A stretch of DNA of 64,000 nt, taken from contig CAZMKD010000260.1 of assembly GCA_964566575.1 (NCBI GenBank), positions 521 to 64,520 of the forward strand, read 5' to 3'. A program made the position numbers and the translations under genes. Under the pieces are notes generated by a model. The model was given only the letters and a program-made list of their open reading frames with translations, made no database searches and was not told the DNA's origin. The DNA comes from an uncultured Verrucomicrobiota bacterium (lineage in GTDB: Bacteria > Verrucomicrobiota > Verrucomicrobiia > Palsa-1439). This document shows, in pieces, positions 6,474 through 50,126 of the stretch. Position 1 is the stretch's first letter, and the number at the start of each line of letters is the position of its first letter.

Positions 6474-6710
6474 CTATTCGTCACGGCTCATCGGGGCCTT
6501 CACCGCATCGATCTTGGCCGGATCGGCGGTGGTGATGATGTCGATCAGGCCCACCTTGACGCCGTCGATTCCGTCGCCCAAGCTGCCGGTGTAGTTCACA
6601 CACAGCGCGATGTCCAGGCATCCACAACTTGCGTTTGTCTGCGCCGCCACCCCGCTGCGGCTGCAATCGCCATCAGTCGTTTGATCTGATGTTCTCTTGA
6701 CCCTTTTCAT
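6474..6710 (-). CDS. Small hypothetical protein (78 aa, 4 Cys) translationally coupled to the subtilase.
   Basis: Its ATG at 6710..6708 overlaps the subtilase TGA at 6709..6707 (ATGA). Third-position GC usage matches the host. No homology is recognisable. Confidence 0.45.
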   Translation of the reverse strand: MKRVKRTSDQTTDGDCSRSGVAAQTNASCGCLDIALCVNYTGSLGDGIDGVKVGLIDIITTADPAKIDAVKAPMSRDE

Positions 6711-11614: not shown

Positions 11615-11782
11615 CCTTGAATCCTCCATCATCTCCGGAACGAATTGTGGGCTGGTGATTTGCACGCTACCAAATGGCGCTCCGCAAATGCAACCAGAAT
11701 TATGTCGCGCTGCGTTTCACCGTGGAGAACAGACCAGAACGAGATTGCAAAGTCCAGCCCGTGTTCGCTATAGGATGCGGCT

Positions 11783-29260: not shown

Positions 29261-30874
29261 TTGGCGCTGACAATTTTCTTCCCAAACCCGGTCCGTCCAC
29301 CGCACAATGCCAGCGTGAATCTTTTGCTCGCCGCGATCGCGGTCGTGGTGTTGGCATTCGCCGGCGTGGGTCTGCTGCGATTGGTCTGGCCGGCAATCAC
29401 GACGGTGCCGCGTCCGGCCCGATTGGCAATTGGCTACTGTGCCGGTTGCTGGCTGGTCACGATGCTTTTCTTCGGCGCGTATCTGGCTGGCATCTCATTT
29501 TCACGCTGGTTGGTCATCGCACCTATGGCGGTGCTGGCGGTCGTTGCGTTGCCGGGTTTTCGTGGCGCCAAATTCCGATGGGAATGGCCGGCACTGCTGC
29601 CGGCAGCGCTTTGTCTCCTCGCGCTGGTGTTGTCGTGGTCGCGGCCAGTCTATGGGTACGACGCGGTGATGATGTGGGCGCTGAAGGCAAAGATGGCATT
29701 CTTCGCGCGGACGTGGCCGGCAACGATGTTTGATCCGTTCACGACGGCGCACACGGAGTATCCGCCGTTGATCCCGACCGCGCAGACGTTCGCGTTTTTC
29801 TGGCTCGGACAATTCGACGATGTGGCGTCGCGCGTGGTGTTCGCGGCGTTCTTCGCGTCGGGGGCGGCAATCTTGTGGTGGCTGCTCGGGCAGTTGCAGG
29901 TGAAACTCCGGTGGGCGTGGGTCACGTGGTGGTGCGCTTTGCCGGTGATGATGGAGCAAGTCAAACTCACCTACGCTGATATGCCGCTGGCGGTGTATCT
30001 GTTGGTTTTCTACGGCGCAATGGTCGCGTGGCTGCACGAGCCGGCACGACGCGAGTGGTTGTGGCTGGCCGGTCTCTTCGGCGGGATGGCGTTCTGGGCA
30101 AAACAGGACGCGTTGCTGGGCGTGGGAGCCGGCATCGCAGCGTTGGTGGTACTCCGACAATGGCGTGCGTGGCCGGTGTTGTTGCTGCCGGTTTTCTTGG
30201 GGTTACCATGGCAAATGTTCGTCTGGGCGAAAGATCTGCCGAGCGATTTCGCGCTGAAGTTCGATGACATGCCGCAGAAGACAGCGCATGTGGCGGCAGC
30301 GTTATTGCACCAGGCGATTGACGGAGGCGCGTATGGGTGGTTTTGGGTGATTCTCGTTCTCGTTCCAGTTTGCCGTTGGCGAACGTTGCCACAAGTGAGT
30401 TGGCTCGCCGTTTCGTCGCTTCTGGGAGTGGTCGGCATTTTCGCGGTGTACTGGTTCTCGACGCCCGACGTGCCGGCGTTGTTGCAGACATCGCTGGAGC
30501 GGGTGCTCTTGAACGTATTCGTGCCGGCATTGCTGCTGGTCGCGTTGATGTGGCCGGAGACGCGATTTTTCCCGCGTGTGCTCGCGGTGGTGACGGTGTG
30601 GCTGGGACTGGTCATGGTTTACCAGCACACGCGGGCATGCGTGGAGTTACACCGGGAGTTCGGCGGCATGACGGTCGCGCAACAACACGTGCAGGCAGTC
30701 GAGCCAACACTAGCGAGGGAAATTGCCGGGGCATTAGAGCGATATCCGACGGGTACGCACGTCTGCGTATTGCCGAAGCGGTCGTTGTGGCGGCACAGGT
30801 TTTACTACGAGACTTATCCATATCTGATAGTTGATAGTTCCGCGACGACTGTAATTGAACTTGTGATCAAGTGA
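29261..30874 (+). CDS. Polytopic membrane protein, putative GT-C-fold glycosyltransferase (537 aa).
   Basis: At least 11 hydrophobic segments. First-loop motif YGYDAVMMWALKAKM. C-terminal soluble domain. Confidence 0.7.
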   Translation: MALTIFFPNPVRPPHNASVNLLLAAIAVVVLAFAGVGLLRLVWPAITTVPRPARLAIGYCAGCWLVTMLFFGAYLAGISFSRWLVIAPMAVLAVVALPGFRGAKFRWEWPALLPAALCLLALVLSWSRPVYGYDAVMMWALKAKMAFFARTWPATMFDPFTTAHTEYPPLIPTAQTFAFFWLGQFDDVASRVVFAAFFASGAAILWWLLGQLQVKLRWAWVTWWCALPVMMEQVKLTYADMPLAVYLLVFYGAMVAWLHEPARREWLWLAGLFGGMAFWAKQDALLGVGAGIAALVVLRQWRAWPVLLLPVFLGLPWQMFVWAKDLPSDFALKFDDMPQKTAHVAAALLHQAIDGGAYGWFWVILVLVPVCRWRTLPQVSWLAVSSLLGVVGIFAVYWFSTPDVPALLQTSLERVLLNVFVPALLLVALMWPETRFFPRVLAVVTVWLGLVMVYQHTRACVELHREFGGMTVAQQHVQAVEPTLAREIAGALERYPTGTHVCVLPKRSLWRHRFYYETYPYLIVDSSATTVIELVIK

Positions 30875-31770: not shown

Positions 31771-31988
31771 TTCCGAGTCGATTGACATGTCGCATTGAGC
31801 TGGCAAGCCTTGACATTAAAGCTGTCGGTGGCTATGAACATGTTGTTCAACGAAATGCCCTATGTGCTAGATGAGTCAACCAATGGCTTGGAACGTGCTT
31901 AACATGTTCTGGACACATCGCAAACACAATGCATACGCATGGCCGTCAATTGGTTAGCAGGTGATGGAGATTCAGAAGAAGATTGGAC

Positions 31989-33383
31989 ATGACAAGAGCG
32001 AAGATCCTAATCATTGACCATGATGCTTCCTGGACTTTGACAGTGTCCGAACTGCTAATCAAAGACACTTATGAGGTTTTCTCCGCAAACTCTCCCAAAG
32101 ATGCCATTCTCTTGCTAGGGGTTCATAACATCGATCTGATGATCGCCGACGTGAACATGCCCGGCCAAGATGGGATGACCCTGCTGGAGCAGCTCAGGCA
32201 GATGCACCCCCATACCGCAGTGATTGTCCACACTGAGAAGACGTCGATCTCACAGGCAGTTCAAGCCACGCGGCTGGGTGCTTATGACTACATCGAGAAG
32301 CTGAACGAACCGGAGGCACTCACTTCCTTGCGGGAAAAGGTGCGGCGCTCTGTGCAGCAACATGGAACACTCTTGTCCGCGTCGCCCGGTGATCCTCGCA
32401 CTCGAGGAATGCTCGCCGCGCCGACGCAGGGATTTTACGGCATCATCAGCCAGAATGACCGGATGCGGGACATCTTCGAGTTGATTCAAACCATCGCGGA
32501 CAGTTTTGCCAACATTCTCGTTCACGGAGAAACCGGTACCGGCAAGGAACTCGTGGCTCGTGCTGTTCATGAAGCCAGCGCCCGACACGGCAAGCCGTTC
32601 ATCACGTTGGATTGCTCGGCGTTGGCCCGGGAACTCCTCGAAAGCGAGTTGTTCGGTCACGAGAAGGGCGCATTTACCGGGGCGACGGACCGCCATATTG
32701 GACGGTTCGAGCGCGCCAACGGCGGCACGCTCTTTCTCGACGAGGTCGCCAATATCGACCGAGCGACCCAAGCGAAACTGCTGCGCGTGTTGCAGACACG
32801 AACCTTCGAGCGCGTCGGTGGACAAAAGTCTATCTCCGTGGATGTGCGAATCATCGCCGCGTCAAATCGTCCGCTGGAACAATTGGTCACTGATGGGACC
32901 TTTCGCGAAGACTTGTATCACCGGCTAAACGTCGTCCAAATCGACCTGCCGACGTTGCGAGAGCGGGCTGTGGATGTGCCGTTGCTGGCGACGGAGTTTT
33001 TGCGGCGGTTCGCCCAGCAGAACAGCAAGGACATGCGAAGCTTCACCGACGGCGCGATGAACATGCTCACCAATTATCACTGGCCTGGCAATGTGCGCGA
33101 ACTGGAAAACGTCGTGTTGCAGGCCGTCGTTCTAGCGAAATCCGCATTCATCGACACCTGCGATTTGCCGAAACGCATCATTCAATCGCCGACCACAGTC
33201 ACGGCGCCGGTAACGGCCGCGCTGGCCGATCAACTGGGCGAGCCGGAACGGCAAATCCTGGTCAATGCCCTGCGTCAGCACGCCGGCAACATCAAGCGTA
33301 CCGCCGAGATGCTCGATATCAGCCGCACGACGCTGTACGCCAAATTGAGGAAATACCAAGTCGATCCCGACGCCATTCGTTAG
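31989..33383 (+). CDS. Sigma-54-dependent Fis-family response regulator (NtrC/AtoC-like enhancer-binding protein).
   Basis: Receiver domain with LMIADVNMPGQDG. AAA+ domain with GETGTGKE Walker A and ESELFGHEKGAFTGA GAFTGA motif. C-terminal Fis-type HTH. The start is probably ATG 31989; the track uses TTG 31983. No histidine kinase is adjacent. Confidence 0.9.
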   Translation: MTRAKILIIDHDASWTLTVSELLIKDTYEVFSANSPKDAILLLGVHNIDLMIADVNMPGQDGMTLLEQLRQMHPHTAVIVHTEKTSISQAVQATRLGAYDYIEKLNEPEALTSLREKVRRSVQQHGTLLSASPGDPRTRGMLAAPTQGFYGIISQNDRMRDIFELIQTIADSFANILVHGETGTGKELVARAVHEASARHGKPFITLDCSALARELLESELFGHEKGAFTGATDRHIGRFERANGGTLFLDEVANIDRATQAKLLRVLQTRTFERVGGQKSISVDVRIIAASNRPLEQLVTDGTFREDLYHRLNVVQIDLPTLRERAVDVPLLATEFLRRFAQQNSKDMRSFTDGAMNMLTNYHWPGNVRELENVVLQAVVLAKSAFIDTCDLPKRIIQSPTTVTAPVTAALADQLGEPERQILVNALRQHAGNIKRTAEMLDISRTTLYAKLRKYQVDPDAIR

Positions 33384-34861
33384 CGGCGCGTGTAGATGAC
33401 CGCAGTTTCGTCGACGTAAATCTGTTTCCAGTCCGCCCGTAACGCCAACAGCGCGTTCAAGCCGTGTTTCGGCGGGAGGATTGTCCAGCCCACCCGGTAT
33501 TTCCCCAACACCGTGTCCCATCCCGACTTCACGTCGTCCACGGTGTTGAATTCCTCGACGAGTTCCCGGCCGTAAAAGTCGTTACGCCCGTCGACGAACA
33601 CCTTGCGTTCCGGCAACTCGAGCATCAAGTAGCCACCCCAGCTGTAGTCATTGAACATCTCGCCCGTCACGGCCGTTGGATTCCCCCGCAACCAGTTGAC
33701 CGCCACGACTGGAAAGCGGTTTGAGAGAATCTCCGTGTCGATCACAGGCGCACCGCCCACGATCTGCGGCTTGGCGCAAATCACCAGCAACGCCGCAACA
33801 GCGAGCCAGACCAATCCGCGCCCGTCCGCTGAACTGTCCAAGACCGTGATTCTCGCGGAAAGCCTTGTCCATACCGACGCGCCGGCAGTCTGCAGATATG
33901 CACTCCAATGTCTCGCAAGGATCGGCGTCGCGACCAATGCAAACACCGGCACATTTCGTGCCGAGTGCAATGCAAAGAAACCCCACACTCCCAACGACAG
34001 CAATTCGGTCGGACGCAACCTCGGCCGCACCACGAGCAAGAGACCGGCAACCACGAGCAACTCCAAAACGAAACCACGCATACCGGTGTTGTGGAAATTG
34101 GGCGAGCGAAACTCATTTGTCAGTCCAGCCAGTGCCGGCGTGCGCAAAAACTCCATAATCTGCGCGTGCAGCATCCATCCGTTGGGATTGATCAACGATG
34201 CCAGCAGACATGCAATCATCACGCCAGCCAGCGTGAGAACTCGTTCGCGCGACAGTGGCCACAGCGCGCCAAGCAAGTAGATACCGATCAGCACCACACC
34301 GGTAAGGAACGCTCCATGCAGGTTCGTCCACAGTACCATCAGCGGCGCGAGCGTGAAGAGCAGTCGATTGCCGGACATCTTACCGTTCTCAAACCGCCAG
34401 AGCTGCCACGCAAAGATTACCGTCAGCAGATGCGTCGTCAGATGTGGACGAGCCAGCCAATGCGTCGAACTCACCAATGCGGCCACCAACACCAATCCGG
34501 TCGACAGAAGCATCTCGCTGCCATCAGCGAGCAGTTGCCGGTGCAAGAGCCACAGCGTCGTCGCGATGAGCGCCGCCGACAACAGCACGATTCCGTTCCA
34601 GCCGGCCGCGCTCCCGGCCGCCGCGAAGATCACTTCGCTCAACCATTCCTTCGAGATCAGCGGCGCCCCGAAGCGCGTGTGGGAGAACTGATCGCGAACG
34701 ATAACAGTCTGATGCCCGATCATCCAGTCGCCGATGCGCCGGTGCAAGCACGGGTCCCCGTCCGCACTGATCATGACTTGCCGCCAATCGCTGAGGACCA
34801 GCCCGAAGAATATCAACAGCCACAGCGCCACGCTGATCGATGGGAGCCAGACGCGTTTCAC
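33380..34861 (-). CDS. STT3/PglB-like GT-C membrane protein, paralog 1 of 3 (oligosaccharyltransferase-like, divergent WWDYG).
   Basis: GTG 34861..34859 overlaps the upstream paralog stop (GTGA at 34858..34861). The 33-aa N-terminus is followed by ISADGDPCLHRR. C-terminal MFNDYSWGGY-x8-K-VF-VDGRNDFYG at 33621..33650. Confidence 0.75.
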   Translation of the reverse strand: MKRVWLPSISVALWLLIFFGLVLSDWRQVMISADGDPCLHRRIGDWMIGHQTVIVRDQFSHTRFGAPLISKEWLSEVIFAAAGSAAGWNGIVLLSAALIATTLWLLHRQLLADGSEMLLSTGLVLVAALVSSTHWLARPHLTTHLLTVIFAWQLWRFENGKMSGNRLLFTLAPLMVLWTNLHGAFLTGVVLIGIYLLGALWPLSRERVLTLAGVMIACLLASLINPNGWMLHAQIMEFLRTPALAGLTNEFRSPNFHNTGMRGFVLELLVVAGLLLVVRPRLRPTELLSLGVWGFFALHSARNVPVFALVATPILARHWSAYLQTAGASVWTRLSARITVLDSSADGRGLVWLAVAALLVICAKPQIVGGAPVIDTEILSNRFPVVAVNWLRGNPTAVTGEMFNDYSWGGYLMLELPERKVFVDGRNDFYGRELVEEFNTVDDVKSGWDTVLGKYRVGWTILPPKHGLNALLALRADWKQIYVDETAVIYTRR

Positions 34862-36237
34862 GGCGACCTCCGACAGAGAACGGTCGCCACTGCGTCGGTG
34901 TACGCCGCTTGCCACGACGGCGCGAGAATCTGGTTCAGCCGGTGGGCGCGCGGCAAGATGGTCCAGCCCACGTTGTACTTCGCGAGCACGGCTTCCCAGC
35001 CAGGGCGGATCTCGTCCACAATGTTAAACTCGTTGATCAATTTCTCGCCGTAGAAGTCCACGCGGCCATCGACAAAAACTTTGTGCTGCGGGAGTGCGAG
35101 AACCAAGTACCCGCCCCACGTCACGTCGTTGAATATCTCGCCACACACCGCCTCCGGATGTTGCCGCACGTACCGGACAGCGTCGACTGGGTATTTGTCC
35201 GCCGGTATTTCCGTTGGCAACCATTTCGGCCCGACCGCCAACGCGACCACGACAGTCACCGCCACCCACGCACCACCACCTTCCCGGCCGGCAAATGTCC
35301 GGTGCCAACGACTCGCGATCGGCTTGGCGAGAATTGGCACGGCAATCAGCGCAAACGCCGGCGCGTTGCGCGCGTTGCGCAGCGCAAGAAAGCCAAACAC
35401 CGAGATGAGCAACATTTCCGTTGCCGTCCACTTCGGGCGGACGATGGCAACTGTCAACGCCAGCATCACGAGCAGGAGGGCCAATCCGATGTGCTTGCGG
35501 AAGCTGGGCGCGGCGTACTCCTGCACGAAATTCACCAGCGCGTCGCTGCGCAAGTACCCGGTCACGTGCTCGTGTAAGTGCCAGCCATTTGGATTGAGCA
35601 ACGACGCCAGTAGACATGCCGCCAGCAAACCGGCGAGACGCCAGTTACCGATAGCGTGAATGGCAATCAGAACAAATGCCGTCACAAACGCACCGTGTAG
35701 ATTCGCCCACAACATCGTCAACGGAACCAGCGCCGCAAACAGCTTTCCGGTGGAGAGCTCATCACGAAGCATACCGGCAAATACGACCGTCAACAAATGC
35801 GTCATCAAATGCGGCCGCGCCAACCAATGCGTCGCGCACACGCTTGCGGCGAGGAGCGTCAGTCCAGTCGCGACCACAGCGTTCCCGCCTTCGCGCAGCA
35901 ACTGCCGGTGCAACCACCACAGTGTCGTCGCAATCAATGCCGCCGACAGCGCGACCGCACCAAACCAGCCGAGCGCGTTCCCGGCCAGCGCGAACGCGAT
36001 CTCACTCAACCACCACATCTCCACCAGTGGCGCCCCGAATCGTGTGTGCGAAAACTCATCAGCCCTCAGAACGGACCGGTGTTCCAGCATCCAGTTGCCT
36101 TGCCGCCAGTGCCAGCAGGGATCACCGTCGGCGCTGATCAATTTGATTCGCTGGCTACTGCAAGTCAGTGCAAGAAAAAACACCAGCCAGACCACCACGC
36201 TCAAAGACGGCCGGCCCCACCACCGTCGCGTGTTCAC
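34858..36237 (-). CDS. STT3/PglB-like GT-C membrane protein, paralog 2 of 3.
   Basis: GTG 36237..36235 overlaps the paralog 3 stop (GTGA). LISADGDPCWHWR. IFNDVTWGGY-x8-K-VF-VDGRVDFYG. Confidence 0.75.
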   Translation of the reverse strand: MNTRRWWGRPSLSVVVWLVFFLALTCSSQRIKLISADGDPCWHWRQGNWMLEHRSVLRADEFSHTRFGAPLVEMWWLSEIAFALAGNALGWFGAVALSAALIATTLWWLHRQLLREGGNAVVATGLTLLAASVCATHWLARPHLMTHLLTVVFAGMLRDELSTGKLFAALVPLTMLWANLHGAFVTAFVLIAIHAIGNWRLAGLLAACLLASLLNPNGWHLHEHVTGYLRSDALVNFVQEYAAPSFRKHIGLALLLVMLALTVAIVRPKWTATEMLLISVFGFLALRNARNAPAFALIAVPILAKPIASRWHRTFAGREGGGAWVAVTVVVALAVGPKWLPTEIPADKYPVDAVRYVRQHPEAVCGEIFNDVTWGGYLVLALPQHKVFVDGRVDFYGEKLINEFNIVDEIRPGWEAVLAKYNVGWTILPRAHRLNQILAPSWQAAYTDAVATVLCRRSP

Positions 36238-37655
36238 TCTTTCCTCCACCAAATCATCGCGACCTCATCTGAGTGTACACAACTCCATCCCTCCCACTCT
36301 GCCAGCGCCAGATTGAGCCGGTGGTTCGTGGGCATGAGCGTCCATTGCACTTGATACTTCTGCAGCGGCTCAACCCAGTTGGGACGTAGCGCCGTTAAAT
36401 CAGCGAATTCGCGGATGAAATCCTCTCCATAAAAATCCGTCCGCCCGTCGACGTACGTCTTGTGCTCCGGCAACGCCTTCATCAAATACCCACCCCAGAT
36501 GTACTGGTTGAACATATTCCCGGTAAACTCCTGCGGATGTTGCCGGATGAACTCAATCGCTCTTACCGGCCAGCGATCTGCCGGCATATCTGTCGGGTGC
36601 GGTGCGAAGATGATAAATGTCGTCGCTGCCGCTAAGACAACCGTCCAGCCCGTGCTCATGTCGTCAATGCGCCGCAACCGCACGGACAAAGATCGCCACC
36701 TTTCCGGCAACACCACCGACCATGACACGGCAAGAATCGGCGCGGTCACAATGACCAACAGCGGGATGTTGCGCCCAGCGTACAATGCAAAGTACGTCCA
36801 CGAAATCAACAGCAACCCATCTGCGGCCGACACGCGTGGGCGACACAGCGTCAGCGTCAGGAAGATCACCGCCAGCCATGCCAGAAACCCGAGCGAGCCA
36901 CCCGAGTGAAAATTCGCCGAACCGTACTCCGCCAGCCAACCGGTCAGGAAGTCCGACCGGAGGAATGCAAGATTGTGCAAGTGCAGCTTCAGGCCGCTCG
37001 GGTTCAACAATGACGCCACCGCGCACAACGCTGCGATGACGGTGAGCGTCTTCACCTCCGGCCACCGACGTTCGATCATAGCGCCGAGCCAGTACGCGCC
37101 GAGCACGAGAAAGCCGGCCAGAAACGCGCCATGCAGATTCACCCATAGCACGGTCAGCACCGGCAAAACCGCGTAGCGGCGCCGGCGCAGAGCTGTGTTC
37201 CACAGCAACATCAACAGGAAACTGAATACGTGGGGACGGGCCAGCCAGTACCCGCAGGCCGCCCACATCGCAAGCACAGCCACCGCTGTCGCGACGATAA
37301 AATCGCTCCCGGCCCGCAGCAGTTGCCCGTGCAGCAAAGCGAAGGTCGTCGCAATGACCAACGCCACCACCACCGCCAAAGCAAACAACCCGGCCACGTG
37401 CGCCGCCGACGCAAAGATGATTTCCGCGAGCCATTCCTTCGAGATGACCGGCTGGCCGAACTTCGTGTGGGAAAACACATCGGTGCGGACGATTTGCCGG
37501 TGCTGCAGCATCCACTCGCCGACGCGCCAGTGCATGCAAGTGTCGCCGTCGCTGGCGACCATCGCGGTGCGCCATGGTTGCGACAGTAGCATCACGACCA
37601 GCAACAGCCACAACCAGTGGCTCACCGACGGCAATAACCAGCGGGTCGCTCGCAT
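36234..37655 (-). CDS. STT3/PglB-like GT-C membrane protein, paralog 3 of 3.
   Basis: ATG 37655. MVASDGDTCMHWR. MFNQYIWGGY-x8-K-TY-VDGRTDFYG. 473 aa. Confidence 0.75.
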   Translation of the reverse strand: MRATRWLLPSVSHWLWLLLVVMLLSQPWRTAMVASDGDTCMHWRVGEWMLQHRQIVRTDVFSHTKFGQPVISKEWLAEIIFASAAHVAGLFALAVVVALVIATTFALLHGQLLRAGSDFIVATAVAVLAMWAACGYWLARPHVFSFLLMLLWNTALRRRRYAVLPVLTVLWVNLHGAFLAGFLVLGAYWLGAMIERRWPEVKTLTVIAALCAVASLLNPSGLKLHLHNLAFLRSDFLTGWLAEYGSANFHSGGSLGFLAWLAVIFLTLTLCRPRVSAADGLLLISWTYFALYAGRNIPLLVIVTAPILAVSWSVVLPERWRSLSVRLRRIDDMSTGWTVVLAAATTFIIFAPHPTDMPADRWPVRAIEFIRQHPQEFTGNMFNQYIWGGYLMKALPEHKTYVDGRTDFYGEDFIREFADLTALRPNWVEPLQKYQVQWTLMPTNHRLNLALAEWEGWSCVHSDEVAMIWWRKE

Positions 37656-37689: not shown

Positions 37690-39279
37690 TCAACGTAGAA
37701 CTGCAACCGGGTACGGCTCCAGCCGGGGCGGCTGCGCGTCTGCCTCCAACAACCAAACGTGGCGGTCGCGAAAGTAGTCGAGCAACTTCTGGTTTTGCGC
37801 CTCATCCATCTCCCGCGCCCAGACCACGCACGCGCCGTCGATGTCCGCTTCGTTGTAAACCCATTCATCTTCCGGCGAGTGTGATGCGCCATAACGCACA
37901 ATCACGAGTTGTTTCTCACCCGATCCTCGCAATCGGGTCAGTAAATGTTGCCTGTCCACCGCATACTGACGCGGCACATCCTTTCGAAGCAGGATTACAG
38001 TGACCACCACGCTTGCCGCGTATCCCATCAAACCCCAACGCACGAGCGCCCGGCCTACGCGTCGCCGCCCGCAGCGCCACACCCAAACCCGCCGCAGTAC
38101 TGCCACCCCAAGTACCGCCAACGCACCGATTGCCGGCGCCGCATAATGCACGTTGAACCACGATTCCAGCAGCAGGCCCACGACAAATATCATCACGCCC
38201 CCACCCAGAAGTCGCGTCCATCGATCGCGCATCGCCCACCTGAGCGGCACGACCGCAAGCGTGATCAACGCCATCGGCAGCCCAAGCAAATGCACCGGGA
38301 AAAGTCCGTCAGCGAGAATGACGAGTTTTTTCCAGCAAGCGATCACAAAGCCGGCGAGTGTTTGCTGCGTTTGATAGTTGAACAACACCAGCGCGTGAAA
38401 AAACTCGCGAATCACCTCGTGCCGGTAACTCGGTTCTGAATGCAGCGGCATCCACACAAATGGTGGCGCAATTCCGTATTGCGCTACATACTCCACGTAC
38501 GGAAGCCGCAGTGCATTGCCGGTCACGCGCCAGTTGTAGTACCCAAGCCAGCAGGCACCGATGGTCAACATAACAACCATCGGCACCAGCGTCCGCCAAT
38601 GCCTTCTGCAATGACCCAGCCACCAGACAACCAACGCCGCCACGCTGAGAACAAGTCCCTCGCACGGACGACTCACCGCCAGCACGGCCATGCCGGCGCC
38701 CATCGCCCAGCCGTTGCTGCGGCGCATGCCGCCAAGTACCAACGCGCCGCCCAGCACGTTAATCACTCCGCCTGTGTACCACCGACTCCACACCAGTAAG
38801 ATTGGATGCAGAGCAAACAGCAACGCCCCGAGAACGGCCCACCTCGGGCGCGTCCACGCACGCAACATCCAACACACCGCCGCCGACACAAGACCGGTTG
38901 CCACCCAGACTCCGGCAATCGGATTGCCACACACAACTTGTCCCAGCGCCAAGACCAATCCTTGCGCCGGCGGGTACATCGATGCGTAGGTCGGCTGTTG
39001 CAGAATGTAAAAGCTCTCTAGTTGCACCCACAACGGATGCGGCGGATTCGTCAACCTTCCATGCGAGAAGGTGTCGCCGGCCAAGAGATAACTGTACGGA
39101 TCATGACCCGACGGCGGCGGCACACCGGCGATGGCTGCGACCACGACGCACGCTGCAAAAGATACGAGACCGATGCTGAGAACTGCGAGCCACGGCCGCC
39201 GCCCCAACTTGGCGAGCCCACACTCGGCGGTGCGAAACCATCGGTCAGCCAGTTGCGGCTGGAACCAAACGATCGCCAA
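37690..39279 (-). CDS. Polytopic membrane protein, GT-C-like (529 aa), paralog of 39612..41219.
   Basis: HDPYSYLLAGDTFSHGRLTNPPHPLW first-loop motif. C-terminal soluble domain QLVIVRYGASHSPEDEWVYNEADIDGA. The start is uncertain (TTG 39279). Confidence 0.7.
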   Translation of the reverse strand: MAIVWFQPQLADRWFRTAECGLAKLGRRPWLAVLSIGLVSFAACVVVAAIAGVPPPSGHDPYSYLLAGDTFSHGRLTNPPHPLWVQLESFYILQQPTYASMYPPAQGLVLALGQVVCGNPIAGVWVATGLVSAAVCWMLRAWTRPRWAVLGALLFALHPILLVWSRWYTGGVINVLGGALVLGGMRRSNGWAMGAGMAVLAVSRPCEGLVLSVAALVVWWLGHCRRHWRTLVPMVVMLTIGACWLGYYNWRVTGNALRLPYVEYVAQYGIAPPFVWMPLHSEPSYRHEVIREFFHALVLFNYQTQQTLAGFVIACWKKLVILADGLFPVHLLGLPMALITLAVVPLRWAMRDRWTRLLGGGVMIFVVGLLLESWFNVHYAAPAIGALAVLGVAVLRRVWVWRCGRRRVGRALVRWGLMGYAASVVVTVILLRKDVPRQYAVDRQHLLTRLRGSGEKQLVIVRYGASHSPEDEWVYNEADIDGACVVWAREMDEAQNQKLLDYFRDRHVWLLEADAQPPRLEPYPVAVLR

Positions 39280-39611: not shown

Positions 39612-41219
39612 ATGAACTGGTGGAGACAATTGGTGCGGCGGCCCCGGTTGAGCATTGCCTTGGTCGGATTGCTCGCTGGCGGGTTGTGCGCGACGGCGGG
39701 ATTGTGGATCCGGATGCCGGTCCCCGAGGTGCACGACGAGTTCAGTTATCTGCTGGCGGGCGACACGTATGCACACGGACGGCTGACCAACCCGACGCAT
39801 CCGTTGTGGCAACACTTCGAGAGTTTCCACATCATTCACCAGCCGACCTACATGTCCATGTATCCGCCCGGTCAGGGACTGTTTTTGGGGCTGGGACAAG
39901 TCTTGACGGGCCGCCCCATCGTGGGCGTCTGGTTGAGCACGGCGCTGGCAGTCGCCGCGGTTTGCTGGATGTTGCAGGGCTGGGTGCCGGCCCGGTGGGC
40001 ATTGTGCGGTGGGTTGCTGATGGCGGTACACCCGACAGTGTTTCGCTGGGGTCAGTCGTACTGGGGTGGCGCGGTGGCAATGTTGGGCGGGGCACTGGTG
40101 CTGGGAGCGTTGCGCCGGCTCGCCCGTCACTGGCGTGTATGTGATGCGCTGTGGTTGGGGGCCGGCATGGGAGTACTGGCGCTGAGCCGTCCGTATGAAG
40201 GCGCGGTCCTGAGCGCCCTTTGCGTGATGACTTTGTGGTTGTGGCACCGACACGACCGACGGCTGAGTGGGCTGGAGTTCTTGAGGCGGGTGCTCATGCC
40301 GGCTGCCGGCGTGGTGGCGGCTACAATGTGTTGGTTCGCCTGCGACAATTGGCGCGTGACCGGTAATCCTTTGCGGCTGCCGTATCAGGAAGAACGGTCG
40401 CAGTACGCTCCTGTGCGGAATTCGTTGCTTGGGCTGTCAGCAAAGCGGACGAATGTGTATCGCCATCCGGTCATGCAGGAGTTTTACGAAGGCTGGGAGA
40501 TGGAGCAGTACACTCTTTTTACCGCCAATCTGGCTGAGGTGATATCCGACAAAATCGCGACCTACTCCCGAGGATACTTTGGACTGAGTGTTGCCCCGCC
40601 GTTGACCGGGTTGGTGTTGGTGTTGCTGCTAGGGATGCGCGGGCTGGTCCGGCGGCGGTGGATGAAGATCGGGCTGGGCATCTGGTTGGCGTTTTCAGTG
40701 GCGCAACTGCCCGTGACATGGGCGCATTTCCATTACGCGGCGCTCCTCCATTACGCGGCGCCAGCGTACGGGTTCGCGGCGCTGTGGGTGGTGGAATCGA
40801 CTCGGCAACTCCGGCTGTGGCGCTGGCAGGGATAACGCGTCGGACAAACCACAACCAGGACTCTTGGCGTGGCCTGTGCGGTGGTGTTGTTGCTGTACTA
40901 CGGCACGTGGAGTTGGGAGAAGGCGTCGGCTGCGGCAGACGGGTGGGGAAATCAGCGCGCGCAGTTACTCGAACAGCTATCGCGCGCTGGCGGCCGGCAC
41001 TTGGTGATTGTGCGGTACGGCCAGAGACATTCGGTACATGATGAATGGGTTTACAATGCAGCAGATATTGACGCCGCCACTGTGGTCTGGGCGCGCGCAA
41101 TGGACGCGGTACAGGATCAGCAGTTGATTGGCTACTTCCATGACCGTCGGATCTGGTTGTTGGAACCGGACGAATCGACAGCGCATTTGATGCCCTACCC
41201 GGCGAGGGAGACCAAGTGA
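39612..41219 (+). pseudogene. GT-C-like membrane protein (divergently transcribed paralog of 37690..39279) interrupted by an in-frame TAA at 40833..40835.
   Basis: Track ORFs 39612..40835 and 40869..41219 share one frame. The junction ...LRLWRWQG*RVGQTTTRTLGVACAVVLLLYY aligns with ...VWRCGRRRVGRALVRWGLMGY in the paralog. The C-terminal part HLVIVRYGQRHSVHDEWVYNAADIDAA matches the paralog's C-terminal domain. Confidence 0.65.
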
Positions 41220-42910: not shown

Positions 42911-45034
42911 ATGAAAACCCGGCAGGACATCGAGCTATTTCTTCTTGGGGCCCTGATCCTGTTCTTGGAAGTGGCGCTGATCCGCTGGATCGGCACTGAG
43001 ATTCGCATCTTCGCGTATCTCGGCAACCTCGTCTTGGTGGTCTGTTTCTTCGGCGTGGGTCTCGGCTGCTACCGGGCCGCGCGCCCGCTGGACGTCACGC
43101 GGTTCGGGGTGAATCTGTTGTTGTTATTGGCTCTCATCAGTAATCCCACGCGGATTCAAGCGTTGGATCTGAAAAACGTGACGCTGCTGTTGAGTGGGTT
43201 TGCGGATTCGCCCATCTGGAACGTGATGTGGGACGGCTCGGCATTGCGAGCAGCGGCGGGGCTGGGTCTGGTCGGGGCGCTGTTGTACCTCGTCGCATTT
43301 ACTTTTGTGCCGGTGGGACAGATGTTGGGACGCGCCTTTGAACAACACCCGCACATAGTCCGGGCGTATTCGTTCAACATCGTTGGCAGCCTGGCTGGCG
43401 TGTGGCTGTTCAACCTGTTGAGTTGGCGCTCGTCACCGCCGACCGTTTGGTTTGTGGTGGTCGCAGCGCTGGTCGTGCCACTGTTGATGGCGCGTGGCCG
43501 GCAGGGATGGATCGCCGTCGGACTGATCGCTGTTGCGCCAGCGTTAGTGTGGCTGGGGCATCCGCCCGGCCAGCAGACGGTTTGGTCGCCCTATCAAAAG
43601 CTCACCCTGAGTCCGTATTTCGAAGGAAGCGAAACCAACCGGGTGCAACGCGGTTACCTGGTGGAAGTCAACGGCACCCACTTTCAACAAATGATCGACT
43701 CTTCCGATGCGTTCTGCGCGCGTCACCCCGGCACGTTCAAGATGGAGGATGTTCAGCGCGGCCGGTTCAACACGCCTTTCCCGTTCAAGACGGCCGCCCG
43801 GCGCGTGCTGATCGTCGGAGCAGGCACGGGCAACAACGCGGCGGAAGCGTTGCGTCAGGGCGTCGACGAGGTCGATTGCGTTGAGATCGACCCGCAGATC
43901 TATGCGCTGGGCAAACGATATCACCCCGAGCATCCCTACGATTCGCCGCGCGTACACATGACGGTCAACGACGCCCGCGCCTATTTCAAGCACGCCACCG
44001 GCCACTACGACATCATCTGGTTCGCGTGGCTCGACGCGCACACGCAGGCCTCCTCGTACAACAACCTGCGGCTCGATCACTACGTCTACACCGAGGAAAG
44101 CATCCGAGAGGCGAAACGACTTCTCGCCGACGACGGTTTGTTGTTCATCAACTTCAACGTGATCCGGCCCTGGATTGGCGACCGGCTGTTCGTGCTGTTG
44201 CGGCGTGTGTTTGGCCACGACCCGCTGATGTATCGAAAAATCTTGCCGGCAGAACTTGGCAAAGCCAGCAGTCAGTACGTACTCATCTGCGCCAACCAAC
44301 CGCTCAACGTGGATGGACTGGCCGATCCCAGGTTGCGTGACGTTGTCGCAGGCAGCGTTGTTCAGATGCCCGGTACGACGCGGCCGACGACCGACGACTG
44401 GCCGTATTTATATCTCCAACAACCCAGAATCCCCAAACTTCATCTGGTGACCATGCTCATGATTCTGGGGACAGTCGCGGTGGCAGGTCGGCGCACGTTT
44501 GGGTTAAAAGGAGGACTCGACTGGCATTTCTTCGCGCTGGGCGCAGCGTTTCTGCTTCTGGAGGTGCAGGCGGTGAGCCGCGCCACGCTGTTATTCGGGA
44601 TGACATGGGTGGTGAACGCGATCGTGATCTCGGCGGTGCTGGTGATGATTCTGGCGGCCAACGCCGTTGCCGCCCGCTGGCTACGATTGCCGCATGGATT
44701 CATCGTCGGCGGGCTAGCCGTAACGGTCATGGCGTTGGCGGCGATGCCGCTTGCATGGTTTAACACACTAAGCGGCGCGACAAAGGTGGTCGTCGCGGGG
44801 GGATTTCTGACGGCGCCGGTGTTCTTTGCCGGACTGGTGTTTATCCGATCATTTACCGCCTGCAATGACAGAGCACGCGCGCTCGGCTCAAACCTGATTG
44901 GCGCACTCGTGGGCGGACTGCTCGAATCGCTGTCGTTCGTCACAGGCATCCGGGCATTGGTGATACTAATCGGATTGTTCTACGTTGTGGCGTTGTGGTT
45001 AAGGCCGAAGGAGCGAGTGTCGCAGTATGTCTGA
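42911..45034 (+). CDS. Membrane-embedded spermidine-synthase-like (PABS/class-I SAM methyltransferase fold) fusion protein, 707 aa.
   Basis: An N-terminal 7-8 TM block, then a soluble domain VLIVGAGTGNNAAEALRQGVDEVDCVEIDPQIYALGKRY...DIIWFAWLD...DGLLFINF, then a second C-terminal TM block. Confidence 0.8.
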   Translation: MKTRQDIELFLLGALILFLEVALIRWIGTEIRIFAYLGNLVLVVCFFGVGLGCYRAARPLDVTRFGVNLLLLLALISNPTRIQALDLKNVTLLLSGFADSPIWNVMWDGSALRAAAGLGLVGALLYLVAFTFVPVGQMLGRAFEQHPHIVRAYSFNIVGSLAGVWLFNLLSWRSSPPTVWFVVVAALVVPLLMARGRQGWIAVGLIAVAPALVWLGHPPGQQTVWSPYQKLTLSPYFEGSETNRVQRGYLVEVNGTHFQQMIDSSDAFCARHPGTFKMEDVQRGRFNTPFPFKTAARRVLIVGAGTGNNAAEALRQGVDEVDCVEIDPQIYALGKRYHPEHPYDSPRVHMTVNDARAYFKHATGHYDIIWFAWLDAHTQASSYNNLRLDHYVYTEESIREAKRLLADDGLLFINFNVIRPWIGDRLFVLLRRVFGHDPLMYRKILPAELGKASSQYVLICANQPLNVDGLADPRLRDVVAGSVVQMPGTTRPTTDDWPYLYLQQPRIPKLHLVTMLMILGTVAVAGRRTFGLKGGLDWHFFALGAAFLLLEVQAVSRATLLFGMTWVVNAIVISAVLVMILAANAVAARWLRLPHGFIVGGLAVTVMALAAMPLAWFNTLSGATKVVVAGGFLTAPVFFAGLVFIRSFTACNDRARALGSNLIGALVGGLLESLSFVTGIRALVILIGLFYVVALWLRPKERVSQYV

Positions 45035-45275: not shown

Positions 45276-46859
45276 ATGAACGCTTTCGGGTACCAACTAG
45301 ACCCACCCAAGTGTCCGAGGTTTTGGGTGACTGGATTTTTCGTCGCATTAGTGACTCTGACCTGTATCCTTTGCACCAACTTTGACCGCCCATGGACCGG
45401 TCATCACGACTTCAACGGCGCCGTGTGGTCGCAGTCGGCACACAACGCGTTGCGGGCCGGACTGTGGGTGACGCGAGGAGCCTCCACGGGCTTCTACTTC
45501 GGACCGTTACCGATACCACCCAACGGCTACTACATGCATCATCCGCCGGCACTGCCCTTGACGGTGACGGGAGCGTTTCTCTTGTTTGGTGAACACGAAT
45601 GGGTGGCGCGAGCGGTTCCGATTGTGTCTTCGGTTGCAAGCGCAGTGTTTCTCTGGTTGCTGCTGCGTAGCTGTGTCGGGATCCGTGCTGCCACGCTGGG
45701 CGTGGCGGTGTTTGCGCTCTTGCCGATGGAGTTGTATTTCGGACGGATGGTGAACCACGAAGCATGCGCTTTGCTATGGATGTTGGCAGCGTTCTGGGCG
45801 CTTCGCAGATGGCAGGAAACCGGGAGGATGTCCTGGAAGCTGACGGCGCTCGCGTTTTTTTTGTTGGGGATGGAGACGGCATTGCCGGTTTATCTGCTGG
45901 TCATGGTGGCGGCCGCCTTGCTCTGGATGAGTGGTGACCGTTCGGAATGCCAGCTCGCGTGGCTGTTGGTGGCGCTGGCAGTGTTGGCGGGGCTGCTGTT
46001 CCTCGCCCACGCCCGGCTTGTGCGGGCCGATGCTTGGGCGGATGGTTGGGTAGCGATCACGCGCCGCAGAAGCATGACGGGCCGGCTTCAGTTCACTTGG
46101 CAGCAATGGTTCCAATCGGAACGGAACATCCTCGCTGAGTATTTCTCACTGCCAGCATGGATGTTGGCGACCGGTGGAGCGGTGGTCATGACACGAAACA
46201 GGGTTCGCAAAGAGCAATGGCGCTGGCTTGTTGTGGCGGCGGCGAGTATCTTTTTTATGGACACTCTGTACGTCGTAGCCTTTCCGAATGCCTCCATCGT
46301 TCATGACTACGCCGCATTCTATTTCGTCGCTCCGTTGGCGATGATGGGCGGCGTCGCTTTGGACGCGTTACTCGGCAGTAATCTCGTCCGCACCAACAGA
46401 TGCGCCCGGGCCGCAGCAACTGGATTCGCCATTCTGGTGCTGGTATTGATGGGGCGGCACGCCTTCACCAAAGTGCGGGATCTGCACCGCATCCAATATT
46501 GTCTGGTTTGCGATCGATTTATCGAACCTCCGAATCTGATTCCGTCGCTCGGACAAGCCATGCGGGGTTTCTTCCCAGAGCAGACACTTGTGCTCTGCAA
46601 TATTCTGCCGGACAGACCGCGCGCTTTGCTACCGCCCCAACTGCAATACTATTCCGAACGAGAGTTGCTGAATCCCGGGACAACTTACGCGCAATGGCAG
46701 CAGCCGATTGCGCAACACGAGCCGTTTGTCGGCGGGGTGATTTGGGAGGGAGAGACCGGAGCGGCGGATTTGCTGGCCGCGTTGCCGGAAGGAAAGCGGT
46801 GCCGGGTCCAATTCGGTACGTTCCAGTTCTGTTTGTGGAAGCTTAAAGACAACGGATGA
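45276..46859 (+). CDS. GT-C-fold membrane glycosyltransferase-like protein (GT39/ArnT-like), about 527 aa.
   Basis: The first ATG at 45276 has an AAGGAAA Shine-Dalgarno; the track TTG 45255 is less likely. First-loop motif RPWTGHHDFNGAVWSQSAHNALRAG. Its stop overlaps the next start (ATGA at 46856). Confidence 0.7.
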   Translation: MNAFGYQLDPPKCPRFWVTGFFVALVTLTCILCTNFDRPWTGHHDFNGAVWSQSAHNALRAGLWVTRGASTGFYFGPLPIPPNGYYMHHPPALPLTVTGAFLLFGEHEWVARAVPIVSSVASAVFLWLLLRSCVGIRAATLGVAVFALLPMELYFGRMVNHEACALLWMLAAFWALRRWQETGRMSWKLTALAFFLLGMETALPVYLLVMVAAALLWMSGDRSECQLAWLLVALAVLAGLLFLAHARLVRADAWADGWVAITRRRSMTGRLQFTWQQWFQSERNILAEYFSLPAWMLATGGAVVMTRNRVRKEQWRWLVVAAASIFFMDTLYVVAFPNASIVHDYAAFYFVAPLAMMGGVALDALLGSNLVRTNRCARAAATGFAILVLVLMGRHAFTKVRDLHRIQYCLVCDRFIEPPNLIPSLGQAMRGFFPEQTLVLCNILPDRPRALLPPQLQYYSERELLNPGTTYAQWQQPIAQHEPFVGGVIWEGETGAADLLAALPEGKRCRVQFGTFQFCLWKLKDNG

Positions 46860-47866
46860 TTTCCGAAGCAAAACTCAAGTGGCTGCCCGGCCTGGCCACG
46901 AACCAGCAAATCCGGCTCTACACGCTCGAGAGCCTGCGCGAGCCTCGGCGGCTCCTCGCCAAAGATGGATGGTTGATTTTGAGCTTCGGTCCTGAGCGTT
47001 GGTGGATCGCTGATCGGTTGTTTGTGATGGCTACTGAAGTATTTGGGCACGAACCGGTAGCTTACTCACTGCGAGAAATCTCCCGCCATTGCGGCGGAGG
47101 CGAGAATTTTACGTTATTATGCAGCACTGAGCCACGGTTGCTTGAGACGGTCAAGGATCCCCAACTTCGTGAGTTGATTCAGTCTCATCGATCTACGTTG
47201 CCGGCCGTGACGCGACCCACAACCGATGATTGGCCCTACCTATACTTGGAGAAGGCCAAGATCCCGAAACTACATCCGGTGATCTCACTGACAATTCTTG
47301 GGCCCGTCGCCCTTGCCGGCAGAAAGATGTTTGAGACCAACCGGGGTCTTGACTGGCACTTCTTCGCCTTGGGCGCGGCGTTTCTGCTGCTGGAAGTGCA
47401 GGCGGTCAGCCGTGCCACGTTGTTATTCGGGATGACGTGGATAGTAAATGCGATCGTGATCTCGGCGGTGCTGGTGATGATTCTGGCGGCCAACGTCGTT
47501 GCCGCCCGCTGGCCACGGTTGCCACATGGATTCATCGTTTGCGGACTGGCCGTAACGGTTGTCGCATTGGCAGTGATGCCCCTTGCCTGGTTCAACACGT
47601 TGAACGGACCAACAAAGCTGATTGTCGCGGCGGCGTTTCTGACGGCGCCGGTGTTTTCTGCCGGGTTGGTGTTCATCCGATCCTTTGCCCGCTGCAATGA
47701 CCGGGCACGAGCGCTCAGATCAAACCTGATTGGGGCACTCGTGGGCGGGTTGCTTGAATCGCTGTCGTTTGTAACCGGTATCCGGGCACTAGTGATCTTG
47801 GTGGGAGCGTTCTACGTGTGGGCAGTGCGGTCCCGTCCGTCCCAACAACCACCACGAGGCGACTGA
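46856..47866 (+). CDS. Truncated paralog of the C-terminal half of 42911..45034: part of the soluble domain plus the C-terminal TM block (336 aa). It may be a fragment or pseudogene.
   Basis: About 85% amino-acid identity over the last ~210 residues (RPTTDDWPYLYL...LDWHFFALGAAFLLLEVQAVSRATLLFGMTW...). It lacks the N-terminal TM block and the GxGxG SAM-binding region. Confidence 0.6.
   Translation: MISEAKLKWLPGLATNQQIRLYTLESLREPRRLLAKDGWLILSFGPERWWIADRLFVMATEVFGHEPVAYSLREISRHCGGGENFTLLCSTEPRLLETVKDPQLRELIQSHRSTLPAVTRPTTDDWPYLYLEKAKIPKLHPVISLTILGPVALAGRKMFETNRGLDWHFFALGAAFLLLEVQAVSRATLLFGMTWIVNAIVISAVLVMILAANVVAARWPRLPHGFIVCGLAVTVVALAVMPLAWFNTLNGPTKLIVAAAFLTAPVFSAGLVFIRSFARCNDRARALRSNLIGALVGGLLESLSFVTGIRALVILVGAFYVWAVRSRPSQQPPRGD
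47214..47866 (+). repeat. Segmental duplication: copy B of a ~650-bp block. Copy A is at 44385..45034. About 90% nucleotide identity over 47341..47810 against 44521..44990.
   Basis: Identical 45-nt runs, for example gcgatcgtgatctcggcggtgctggtgatgattctggcggccaac in both copies. Confidence 0.8.
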
Positions 47867-49583: not shown

Positions 49584-50126
49584 TCAGCCAACCGGCACGC
49601 CGGTTAAATCTGCGCGCGCCTCACCCAGCAGCGTGCTCATCAGCCGCGCAATTTTCCGCCGATGCTTGATTATTGCGGGATGCGATACGCCCATCTCCCG
49701 CGCGATCTCTCGGACTCCTAAACCATGCAGCAGCAAGCGCAAAATCCGCCTCTGCGTGTCATTTAGATGCGGCACCACCAGTTCGACGATGTCGTTGGTG
49801 GTCACCTCAGCAAACGCGTCAAACGGATCAACCGCATCAACGACGTAGAATACGTGCCCATCGGCGTCCTCGTAAGTTCGCCCAAGCGAGATGAGATTCT
49901 GGGAGCGCTTTAGTGAATCGACGCTCCGGCCATGCTTGAGATAATTGCGGGCGTGAAACTCGCAATTCTTGATGTACCAACTGGTTGTGTGCCCCGGCAG
50001 CTCAACCTCGATACGCACCAAGTGTATAAACATCTCCTGCAGCAAGTCCTTCTGCAGTTCCACGTCGTTGGTAAGCTTCGCCGCGACCCCGCGCAGTTGC
50101 TTGACGACACGACTATGCCCTGTCAT
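49584..50126 (-). CDS. Sigma-70 family (ECF-like) sigma factor or LuxR-type HTH regulator, 180 aa.
   Basis: Region-2-like LQKDLLQEMFIHLVRIE. C-terminal HTH LNDTQRRILRLLLHGLGVREIAREMGVSHPAIIKHRRKIARLM. Confidence 0.65.
   Translation of the reverse strand: MTGHSRVVKQLRGVAAKLTNDVELQKDLLQEMFIHLVRIEVELPGHTTSWYIKNCEFHARNYLKHGRSVDSLKRSQNLISLGRTYEDADGHVFYVVDAVDPFDAFAEVTTNDIVELVVPHLNDTQRRILRLLLHGLGVREIAREMGVSHPAIIKHRRKIARLMSTLLGEARADLTGVPVG

Follow-up and report, generated by a model that had tools for sequence, protein, structure and literature searches.

Three tandem genes, here called g1, g2 and g3, were examined in a 64,000-nucleotide stretch of DNA from an uncultured Verrucomicrobiota bacterium (Verrucomicrobiia; Palsa-1439; contig CAZMKD010000260.1, positions 521 to 64,520). 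This whole stretch is referred to below as the window, and its own numbering is used throughout. All three genes lie on the minus strand and are predicted to encode membrane glycosyltransferases of the GT-C fold. The gene g1 (36234..37655, 473 amino acids (aa)) starts with ATG and is of the ortholog type that stands first in such arrays. It is followed by g2 (34858..36237, a 459-aa paralog), whose GTG start at 36237 overlaps the g1 stop codon, and by g3 (33380..34861, a 493-aa paralog of the last-gene ortholog type), whose GTG start at 34861 overlaps the g2 stop codon. The initial annotation had recognised these three open reading frames, but its lengths of 460 and 494 for the second and third included the stop codon. 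The identity between the products (BLASTP) was 40% for g1 and g3 (E 7e-119), 39% for g1 and g2 (E 8e-102) and 49% for g2 and g3 (E 1e-148). The paralogy of the three genes is far beyond chance.

The same arrangement was read in the sequence at both gene junctions. At the g1/g2 junction (36234..36247, minus strand), a GGAGG (36243..36247) is followed after a 5-nt spacer by the overlapping GTGA (36234..36237), and at the g2/g3 junction (34858..34871, minus strand) a GGAGG (34867..34871) precedes the GTGA (34858..34861) by the same distance; the two GTGA overlaps reported initially are thus real. Each GGAGG with its spacer sits inside the respective preceding gene. Because GGAGG-N5 precedes each GTG, the GTG starts of g2 and g3 and their translational coupling are supported, as is the initial suggestion that the three genes are co-expressed as an array. 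A fourth gene, n4 (37690..39279, minus strand), encodes a 529-aa polytopic protein and lies 34 nt upstream of g1, and a scan detected no terminator-like site in the gap between them. No Pfam match was obtained for n4. By hhalign it was related to 'unk525' (probability 91.5%, E 8e-7), a PMT_2-like family found beside the relatives of g1-g3 in Chloroflexi and itself tied to PMT_2-like proteins at 95.8% (hhalign). The possibility that n4 is a fourth member of the g1-g3 family was rejected in favour of a PMT_2-like GT-C family. The gene is probably such a relative and the first gene of a four-gene operon, n4-g1-g2-g3. A search for sigma-54 promoters (TGGCAC-N5-TTGC) yielded 79 matches against 87+-10 expected by chance, with none convincing upstream of n4, and the sigma-70 and terminator scans were uninformative.

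Two motifs quoted in the initial annotation were found in all three proteins: (I/V)-(S/A)-(A/S)-D-G-D-(P/T)-C-x-H-x-R near the N-terminus and, towards the C-terminus, x-W-G-G-Y followed after 8 residues by K-x-x-V-D-G-R-x-D-F-Y-G. The segment preceding the first motif had been given as 33 residues in each protein, and was instead 32, 33 and 30 residues long. In g1, the first motif reads D36-G-D38-T-C-M-H42-W-R44 (37524..37550, minus strand) and lies in the first periplasmic loop, as the candidate region of the catalytic Asp. The second, W387-G-G-Y390 ... K399-T-Y-V-D403-G-R-T-D407-F-Y-G410 (36426..36497, minus strand), was identified in the C-terminal domain by motif reading and conservation. 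In a 223-member family alignment with relatives from three phyla, at least 90% conservation was observed for D36, D38, H42, G46, D59, S62, W75, R140, P141, W171, N173, H175, N218, P219, G221, E243, F249, R295, P363, G388, Y390, P396, D403, D407, G410, W427, W457 and D463. D36 and D38 were 94-96% conserved (94-99% when H42 is included), E243 99%, and R140, P141 and R295 100%. Each of g1, g2 and g3 retains every one of these residues, which suggests that none of the three has lost its catalytic competence.

The AlphaFold2 model of g1, for which 46 homologs were used, had a predicted local distance difference test score (pLDDT) of 93 and a predicted template modelling score (pTM) of 0.91. Foldseek searches with this model matched DPY19 and STT3 at E values of 6e-6 to 1e-5, and ArnT at 3e-4. 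The polytopic core and the long first external loop with conserved acidic residues, which characterise the GT-C fold, are present in the g1-g3 family, and the modelled membrane core places the family in the GT-C(A) class; this core alone cannot choose between oligosaccharyltransferases (OSTs) and other protein- or lipid-modifying GT-C enzymes. The GT-C fold was confirmed, and the periplasmic C-terminal domain was found to have the OST core fold, with matches to AglB and STT3. For this domain (DISCRIMINATES), the matches ranked below the top ones were DPY19 (Z 7.2), AftD and AftA (6.9), ALG12 (6.7), PfAglB (6.5) and PglB (5.5); the fold is also found in DPY19, AftD and AftA, at lower Z. The predicted architecture comprises about 11 transmembrane (TM) helices, a cytoplasmic N-terminus, a long first periplasmic loop with D-G-D-x-x-x-H-x-R, and a periplasmic alpha/beta domain of about 120 aa of the AglB/STT3 'core' type. 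The topology is our own reading of the model helices, the hydropathy and the positive-inside rule, and not the output of a dedicated topology predictor. With this topology, the invariant polar residues D36, D38, H42, D59, R140, N173, H175, N218, E243, R295, D403 and D407 are all on the periplasmic side.

The initial annotation had considered g1-g3 to be homologs of the GT66 family, which includes AglB, STT3 and PglB (PF02516). No Pfam or NCBIfam match was obtained for the three proteins at E<=1, nor was a PF02516 match obtained at E<=0.1 for any of 64 diverse relatives (23-51% identical to g1), among which the Pfam scan gave scattered single chance matches and nothing else. Searches of PDB sequences with family profiles retrieved no OST at E<=10. 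The matches that did appear in searches with single proteins and with 46- and 64-sequence profiles, to Akt-kinase (E of about 0.1) and GPR180 (E 0.9), were dismissed as chance. Two structural features of GT66 were also missing. The second acidic motif, D-x-D/E/H after TM3, is replaced by a short loop, L-A-R140-P141-H, with no acidic pair (STT3 D166-N-E168 fell opposite a gap in a low-confidence greedy hhalign alignment), and the g1 model has about 11 TM helices rather than 13. By every sequence test applied, g1-g3 are not GT66/STT3 members.

A more distant relationship was sought with an STT3 profile of 37 sequences (yeast and human STT3, C. lari PglB and metagenomic STT3s, the references having been verified). 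Full-length hhalign comparison gave a probability of about 1% or less. The two best local matches were collinear and corresponded to the C-terminal block and the first loop, both of which had been flagged initially. In the C-terminal match (family 365-444 to STT3 498-574), G-Y aligned with the G-Y of WWDYGY, and K-T-Y-V-D-G-R-T with T-T-L-V-D-N-N-T. Restricted to the domain, this match scored 21.6 (P 0.0037), whereas column-shuffled profiles gave 12.5+-2.6, with 2 of 250 reaching the observed score; with an earlier three-sequence STT3 profile the same register was marginal (12 of 300 shuffles as high). As fold and sequence agree there, the motif homology is real for the C-terminal block. The register originally proposed for the W-G-G-Y and V-D-G-R block thus held, and the PglB string used for that comparison, with its spacing, matches the real 3RCE sequence. 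In the first-loop match (family 35-62 to STT3 44-71), D38 fell on D47, H42 on N51 and R44 on R53. The likeness to the D-P-x-x-(H/N)-x-R motif noted at the outset was therefore recovered in the proposed register, but was not significant alone (34 of 250 shuffles as high), and homology of this motif to that of the OSTs is plausible but unproven. The greedy full-length alignment (collinear, probability <1%) placed E243 on STT3 E350, the Glu of SVSE, and R295 within 2 residues of R404, while N296 paired with PglB R375 in a single-sequence PglB comparison, also below 1%; with probabilities this low, these equivalences are leads only. Comparison of the family with single PglB or yeast STT3 sequences by hhalign was otherwise uninformative, and the yeast match was rejected as spurious because W-G-G-Y had paired with an unrelated 'SAWGGY' in an STT3 transmembrane segment.

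The sequon-contacting WWD triad of GT66 is not present in g1-g3, whose motif is (Y/V)-(S/T/I)-W-G-G-Y. The triad had initially been described as replaced by (S/T/I)-W-G; its loss was upheld, but with G-Y placed on G-Y it falls on (Y/V)-(S/T/I)-W. In the hhalign register G-Y alone is common to both families, and W-W-D falls on Q/D-Y/V-x. Profiles of other families gave no better placement: no match was obtained for the family with the Dpy19 profile (PF10034), with PMT or PMT_2 (PF02366/PF13231) or with the GT87 Pfam model. Against the 'unk525' family, hhalign gave a probability of 29.6% (E 5.7e-4) over 114 columns of conserved module. The proteins thus belong to a new family of the known GT-C(A) class that has so far escaped annotation; its architecture is OST-like, but it fails the tests of GT66 membership.

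The family is widespread. Searching its profile against 1.84 billion cluster representatives gave 30,652 matches at E<=1e-3 (clusters at 50% identity) and 6,980 at E<=1e-30. All family matches in the hit lists were unnamed or called 'hypothetical protein', and none had a precomputed Pfam domain. Judged by these searches, the family is huge and unannotated, without a Pfam or NCBIfam model. The literature searched contained no description of the g1-g3 family or of a Tad-linked GT-C enzyme. When one genome per species was scanned for proteins with both signature peptides, 501 relatives were found, in Verrucomicrobiia, in Anaerolineae and other Chloroflexota, in Bryobacterales and other Acidobacteriota, and in one member of the Bacillota. 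Tandem arrays of 2-5 copies occur in Verrucomicrobiia, while the other lineages mostly have a single copy. The triplicated set emphasised in the initial annotation is correct as a count but of local relevance: the copy number varies from 1 to 5 among relatives and is 2 in the closest one. The first gene of this closest relative is 79% identical to g1, which is 57-60% identical to the first genes of other arrays; g3 is 54-57% identical to the last genes L4_b, L3_d and L1_c. The extra and more divergent copy is g2, which the closest relative's two-gene array lacks. The paralog types within the arrays are ancient.

The gene contents of 41 verrucomicrobial loci, 28 loci from Chloroflexi or other bacteria and 10 acidobacterial loci were compared. 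Genes for Tad proteins or Flp pilins were within 10 kb of the family gene in 9 of the 10 loci from Acidobacteriota and in 15/41 from Verrucomicrobiota. Flp itself was found at this distance in 14/41 of the latter, with the tail ...NNTLSxVNANLP. The linkage was closest in Bryobacterales, where the family gene precedes an Flp pilin gene in the same orientation, at a distance of 12-17 nt. The gene order of this operon is PilZ, family gene, Flp pilin, RcpC, secretin, TadZ, TadA, TadB and TadC, with gaps of 7-17 nt among the first three, and in some loci a TadV prepilin peptidase is encoded between Flp and RcpC. One of these Flp pilins reads MT..DEQG|QDLIEY...TTNSQLTAANSTAGGS, and no conserved N-x-S/T was observed in the Flp pilins that adjoin the family gene. 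Two Bryobacteraceae loci (L083 8698..18177 and L084 8691..18097) begin with a 98-aa PilZ-like protein (..ENISRxGxLV..), followed by the family gene, a 62-63-aa Flp and the tad genes. A cyclic di-GMP-type PilZ protein and a GT-C enzyme as the lead genes of a tad operon appear to be undescribed. In the first of these loci, a response-regulator/GerE protein (7353..8096) also adjoins the tad operon. A 180-aa LuxR/GerE-type helix-turn-helix protein (49584..50126, minus strand) borders the GT-C genes of the window, at the place where related loci have the Flp pilin and the tad operon.

Other GT-C genes were conserved neighbours of the family as well, including several PMT_2-like genes. GT87 genes were found in 19/41 verrucomicrobial loci and in 20/28 of the loci from Chloroflexi or other bacteria, and Bac_transf in 15/28 of the latter. 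In Anaerolineae the operon is fixed, with three PMT_2-like genes, Bac_transf, the family gene, a GT87-like gene, two further PMT_2-like genes, PspA, a GAF histidine kinase and a response regulator. This operon spans about 18 kb (L082 2528..20551 and L066 2474..20813) and includes seven GT-C-type genes; its PMT_2-like genes had no Pfam match and were linked to that family by hhalign alone (84-96%). A sigma-54 response regulator was found in 27/41 verrucomicrobial loci and in 9/28 from Chloroflexi or other bacteria. The one in the window, of NtrC type (31983..33383, plus strand), is convergent with g3, and the stop codons of the two genes overlap by 4 nt. This convergent arrangement is kept in most verrucomicrobial loci, and the annotation Response_reg+Sigma54_activat+HTH_8 was obtained at the equivalent position in L001, L003, L004 and L085.

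In the window, the GT-C island extends over 33.4-49.4 kb and comprises n4, g1-g3, a split n4 paralog, a 504-aa gene, two PMT_2 genes and two spermine-synthase-like membrane proteins. The split n4 paralog (39612..40835 and 40869..41219, plus strand) encodes 407 aa and 116 aa, which match the N- and C-terminal parts of n4 at 41% and 59% identity, respectively. Its two open reading frames look like one gene broken by a frameshift or stop, and might represent a pseudogene or an assembly error. Both n4 and this paralog have an N-terminal HDxxSYLLAGDT(F/Y)xHGRLTNPxHPLW, which has no Pfam match. A 707-aa membrane protein with a spermine/spermidine-synthase-like methyltransferase domain (42911..45034, plus strand) is a conserved array neighbour in 13 verrucomicrobial loci; two genes downstream, a 336-aa open reading frame (46856..47866, plus strand) duplicates its C-terminal 310 residues at 67% identity. 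Outside the island, a 537-aa polytopic protein with about 12 hydrophobic segments (29261..30874, plus strand) is encoded just upstream of fabI. It had no Pfam match, and hhalign showed no relationship to GT-C families. A 1652-aa protein (6707..11665, minus strand) combines a subtilase (Peptidase_S8) with several immunoglobulin-like domains of the ASH/Cep192/HYDIN type, a domain set usually discussed for eukaryotic ciliary proteins.

From what is shown above on fold, residue conservation, operon organisation and gene linkage, we infer, with somewhat better than even confidence, that g1-g3 form one translationally coupled operon, probably with n4 included, whose products are paralogous glycosyltransferases that face the periplasm and belong to a GT-C(A) family not described before. 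They would use a lipid-linked sugar as donor and a surface acceptor, possibly the Flp pilin. A sugar or glycan would be taken from a polyprenyl-phosphate-linked donor in the membrane, as by other GT-C enzymes. One or both of the first-loop Asp residues could act as base and acceptor activator or as donor ligand, and R140 and R295, with H42, N173 and H175, could bind the phosphate or phosphates. The acceptor might be clamped by the OST-like C-terminal domain together with the long loop that contains E243, and the sugar would then be transferred to it. Since the WWD triad and the second acidic (metal-binding) motif are missing, the acceptor is not expected to be an N-x-S/T sequon and the donor or metal chemistry is probably different. 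One possibility is a modified chemistry with monophosphate donors, perhaps independent of metal, like that of DPY19, PMT and ArnT. The adjacency of Bac_transf in Chloroflexi keeps a pyrophosphate-linked donor, transferred en bloc, possible. A novel chemistry or acceptor, as put forward in the initial annotation, is plausible. In Verrucomicrobiia, the 2-5-copy arrays might serve several acceptor sites or add successive sugars.

With regard to the acceptor, the gene neighbourhoods in other phyla point to a surface structure in whose synthesis several PMT_2-like and GT87 GT-C enzymes also take part. The best single candidate is the Ser/Thr/Asn-rich C-terminal tail of the Flp (Tad) pilin, and this choice is tentative. 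Pseudomonas aeruginosa offers a precedent: its GT-C enzyme TfpW, whose gene neighbours that of the pilin, can glycosylate this pilin (bioRxiv 10.1101/2020.04.19.049825). An archaeal Epd-like pilus is the proposed ancestor of Tad pili (PMC6668835), and in Methanococcus maripaludis, whose OST is AglB, the major pilin bears an N-glycan (PMC3875500); the family enzyme could therefore be a remnant or counterpart of archaeal pilin glycosylation. In a more specific form of this idea, the family would be a bacterial protein-glycosylation enzyme not recognised before, an AglB/STT3-derived or sister lineage, without the sequon-reading WWD, that glycosylates the short C-terminal tail of Flp (Tad) pilins, and its expansion into arrays of 2-5 genes in Verrucomicrobiia would provide differing site or sugar specificities. 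We regard this form as speculative, at roughly one chance in four.

Several observations weigh against the interpretation favoured here. The link to Flp/Tad is guilt by association and amounts to about 2-3 independent observations, because loci within a phylum are related. Just 1 of the 28 loci from Chloroflexi or other bacteria has any Flp or Tad gene, and neither Flp pilin nor Tad genes were found within the window by tblastn and a small-ORF (open reading frame) scan. A Tad pilin of Caulobacter was reported without glycan density (PMC10710030). A donor-synthesis gene (Dpm1/GtrB-like GT2) was not found in the window, and the mapping of the catalytic residues rests on hhalign alignments with full-length probabilities of at most 1%. 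In addition, GT-C enzymes are the most consistent partners of the family across phyla, so that glycan elongation fits this neighbourhood equally with protein glycosylation.

Such elongation is the alternative to be taken most seriously, at a little under one chance in three. The g1-g3 proteins would then be comparable to Aft, Emb and PimE of mycobacteria or to the ALG mannosyltransferases, and would add single sugars, taken from polyprenyl-phosphate-sugars, to a growing lipid-linked or envelope polysaccharide or lipoglycan rather than to protein, the array corresponding to successive linkages. Stepwise addition suits tandem paralogs, the family is always found among other GT-C genes (PMT_2-like, GT87 and n4), and the Anaerolineae operon resembles an extracytoplasmic assembly line primed by a phosphoglycosyl transferase. 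AftA, AftD and ALG12 also have both the core fold and the C-terminal domain fold. However, the best full-length and domain matches were to STT3, AglB and DPY19, which modify proteins, and not to Aft or Emb, and the adjacency to the Flp gene at 12-17 nt in Bryobacterales is hard to explain by polysaccharide synthesis alone.

Decoration of lipids or of the envelope in the manner of ArnT or EptA, under control of the adjacent sigma-54 regulator and with lipid A, the lipopolysaccharide core, peptidoglycan or teichoic-like polymers as the acceptor, is improbable. It would agree with the sulfatase/LtaS-EptA-type membrane protein that adjoins the array in about 10 verrucomicrobial loci, and with the LptF/G genes close by in the window and in Bryobacteraceae loci, but the family is also abundant in Anaerolineae, beside Bac_transf, and the Tad linkage would be left unexplained. 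Still less probable is that g1-g3 are true N-oligosaccharyltransferases of the PglB/AglB type (GT66), transferring a preassembled glycan from polyprenyl-pyrophosphate to the Asn of a sequon. OST catalytic subunits are the nearest solved structures, the first-loop D-x-x-x-H-x-R and the G-Y...V-D-G block stand in STT3 register, E243 and R295 align near STT3 E350 and R404 (at low confidence), and Bac_transf, which makes pyrophosphate-linked primers, adjoins the family gene in 15/28 loci from Chloroflexi or other bacteria. On the other hand, g1-g3 and the 64 diverse relatives gave no STT3 match in Pfam or PDB sequences, the WWD triad is lacking, external loop 2 has an invariant R-P where D-x-D/E/H would be expected, about 11 TM helices are seen in the model, and the adjoining Flp pilins have no conserved N-x-S/T. 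That one or more of the paralogs are non-catalytic subunits or scaffolds of GT-C fold, like PIG-U/GAB1 of the glycosylphosphatidylinositol transamidase, is hardly credible, as all copies retain the residues that are at least 90% conserved, including D36, D38, H42, R140, N173, H175, E243 and R295.

The family is of interest chiefly because it is so large, because it stands between the OSTs and the remaining GT-C enzymes, and because its Flp link can be tested. If its acceptors are proteins, it would define a new system of bacterial glycosylation in phyla that abound in soil and freshwater (Verrucomicrobiota, Acidobacteriota and Chloroflexota), would offer a compact OST-like scaffold (about 470 aa) for glycoengineering, and would help to bridge the evolutionary distance from OSTs to other GT-C enzymes. 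With the Flp pilin gene next to it, the glycosylation hypothesis can be tested directly in Bryobacterales that have the operon, provided that cultured strains are among them. If the enzymes only elongate polysaccharides, the family would be one more GT-C family, useful for annotation and unsurprising.

Compared with the PMT_2/GT87 enzymes of multi-GT-C assembly lines (mycobacterial PMT, PimE, Aft and Emb), the g1-g3 family is similar in its occurrence in islands with PMT_2-like and GT87 genes and in a weak profile similarity, and differs in a first loop with D-G-D instead of D-E and in a C-terminal domain that is OST-like, not MIR or lectin. DPY19, the tryptophan C-mannosyltransferase of GT98, is eukaryotic and has 13 TM helices, whereas the family is bacterial, had no Pfam Dpy19 match and is just 3-10% identical to it. 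For the Flp hypothesis, the closest functional analogy may be TfpW, the P. aeruginosa GT-C arabinosyltransferase, whose gene is beside the pilin gene and which glycosylates the pilin in the periplasm from a polyprenyl-phosphate-sugar. In contrast to the Tad/Flp system, however, TfpW serves a type IVa pilus, and no pilin gene adjoins the array in the window. With AglB, STT3 and PglB (GT66, PF02516), the family has in common the G-Y...x-T-x-V-D-(G/N) block with equal spacing, and may also share the first-loop Asp in a D-x-x-x-(H/N)-x-R context and the conserved E243 and R295, roughly at the SVSE/TIXE Glu and the pyrophosphate-binding Arg in a low-probability alignment. Unlike these enzymes, it has no similarity to them detectable by HMMER, (Y/V)-x-W in place of WWD, an invariant R-P in place of D-x-D/E/H, about 11 rather than 13 TM helices and a whole length of about 470-560 aa, and is encoded in 1-5 tandem copies by Verrucomicrobiota, Acidobacteriota and Chloroflexota. 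Apart from PglB, no bacterial relative is structurally closer to the OST catalytic subunit than this family, but its recognition motif is a different one.

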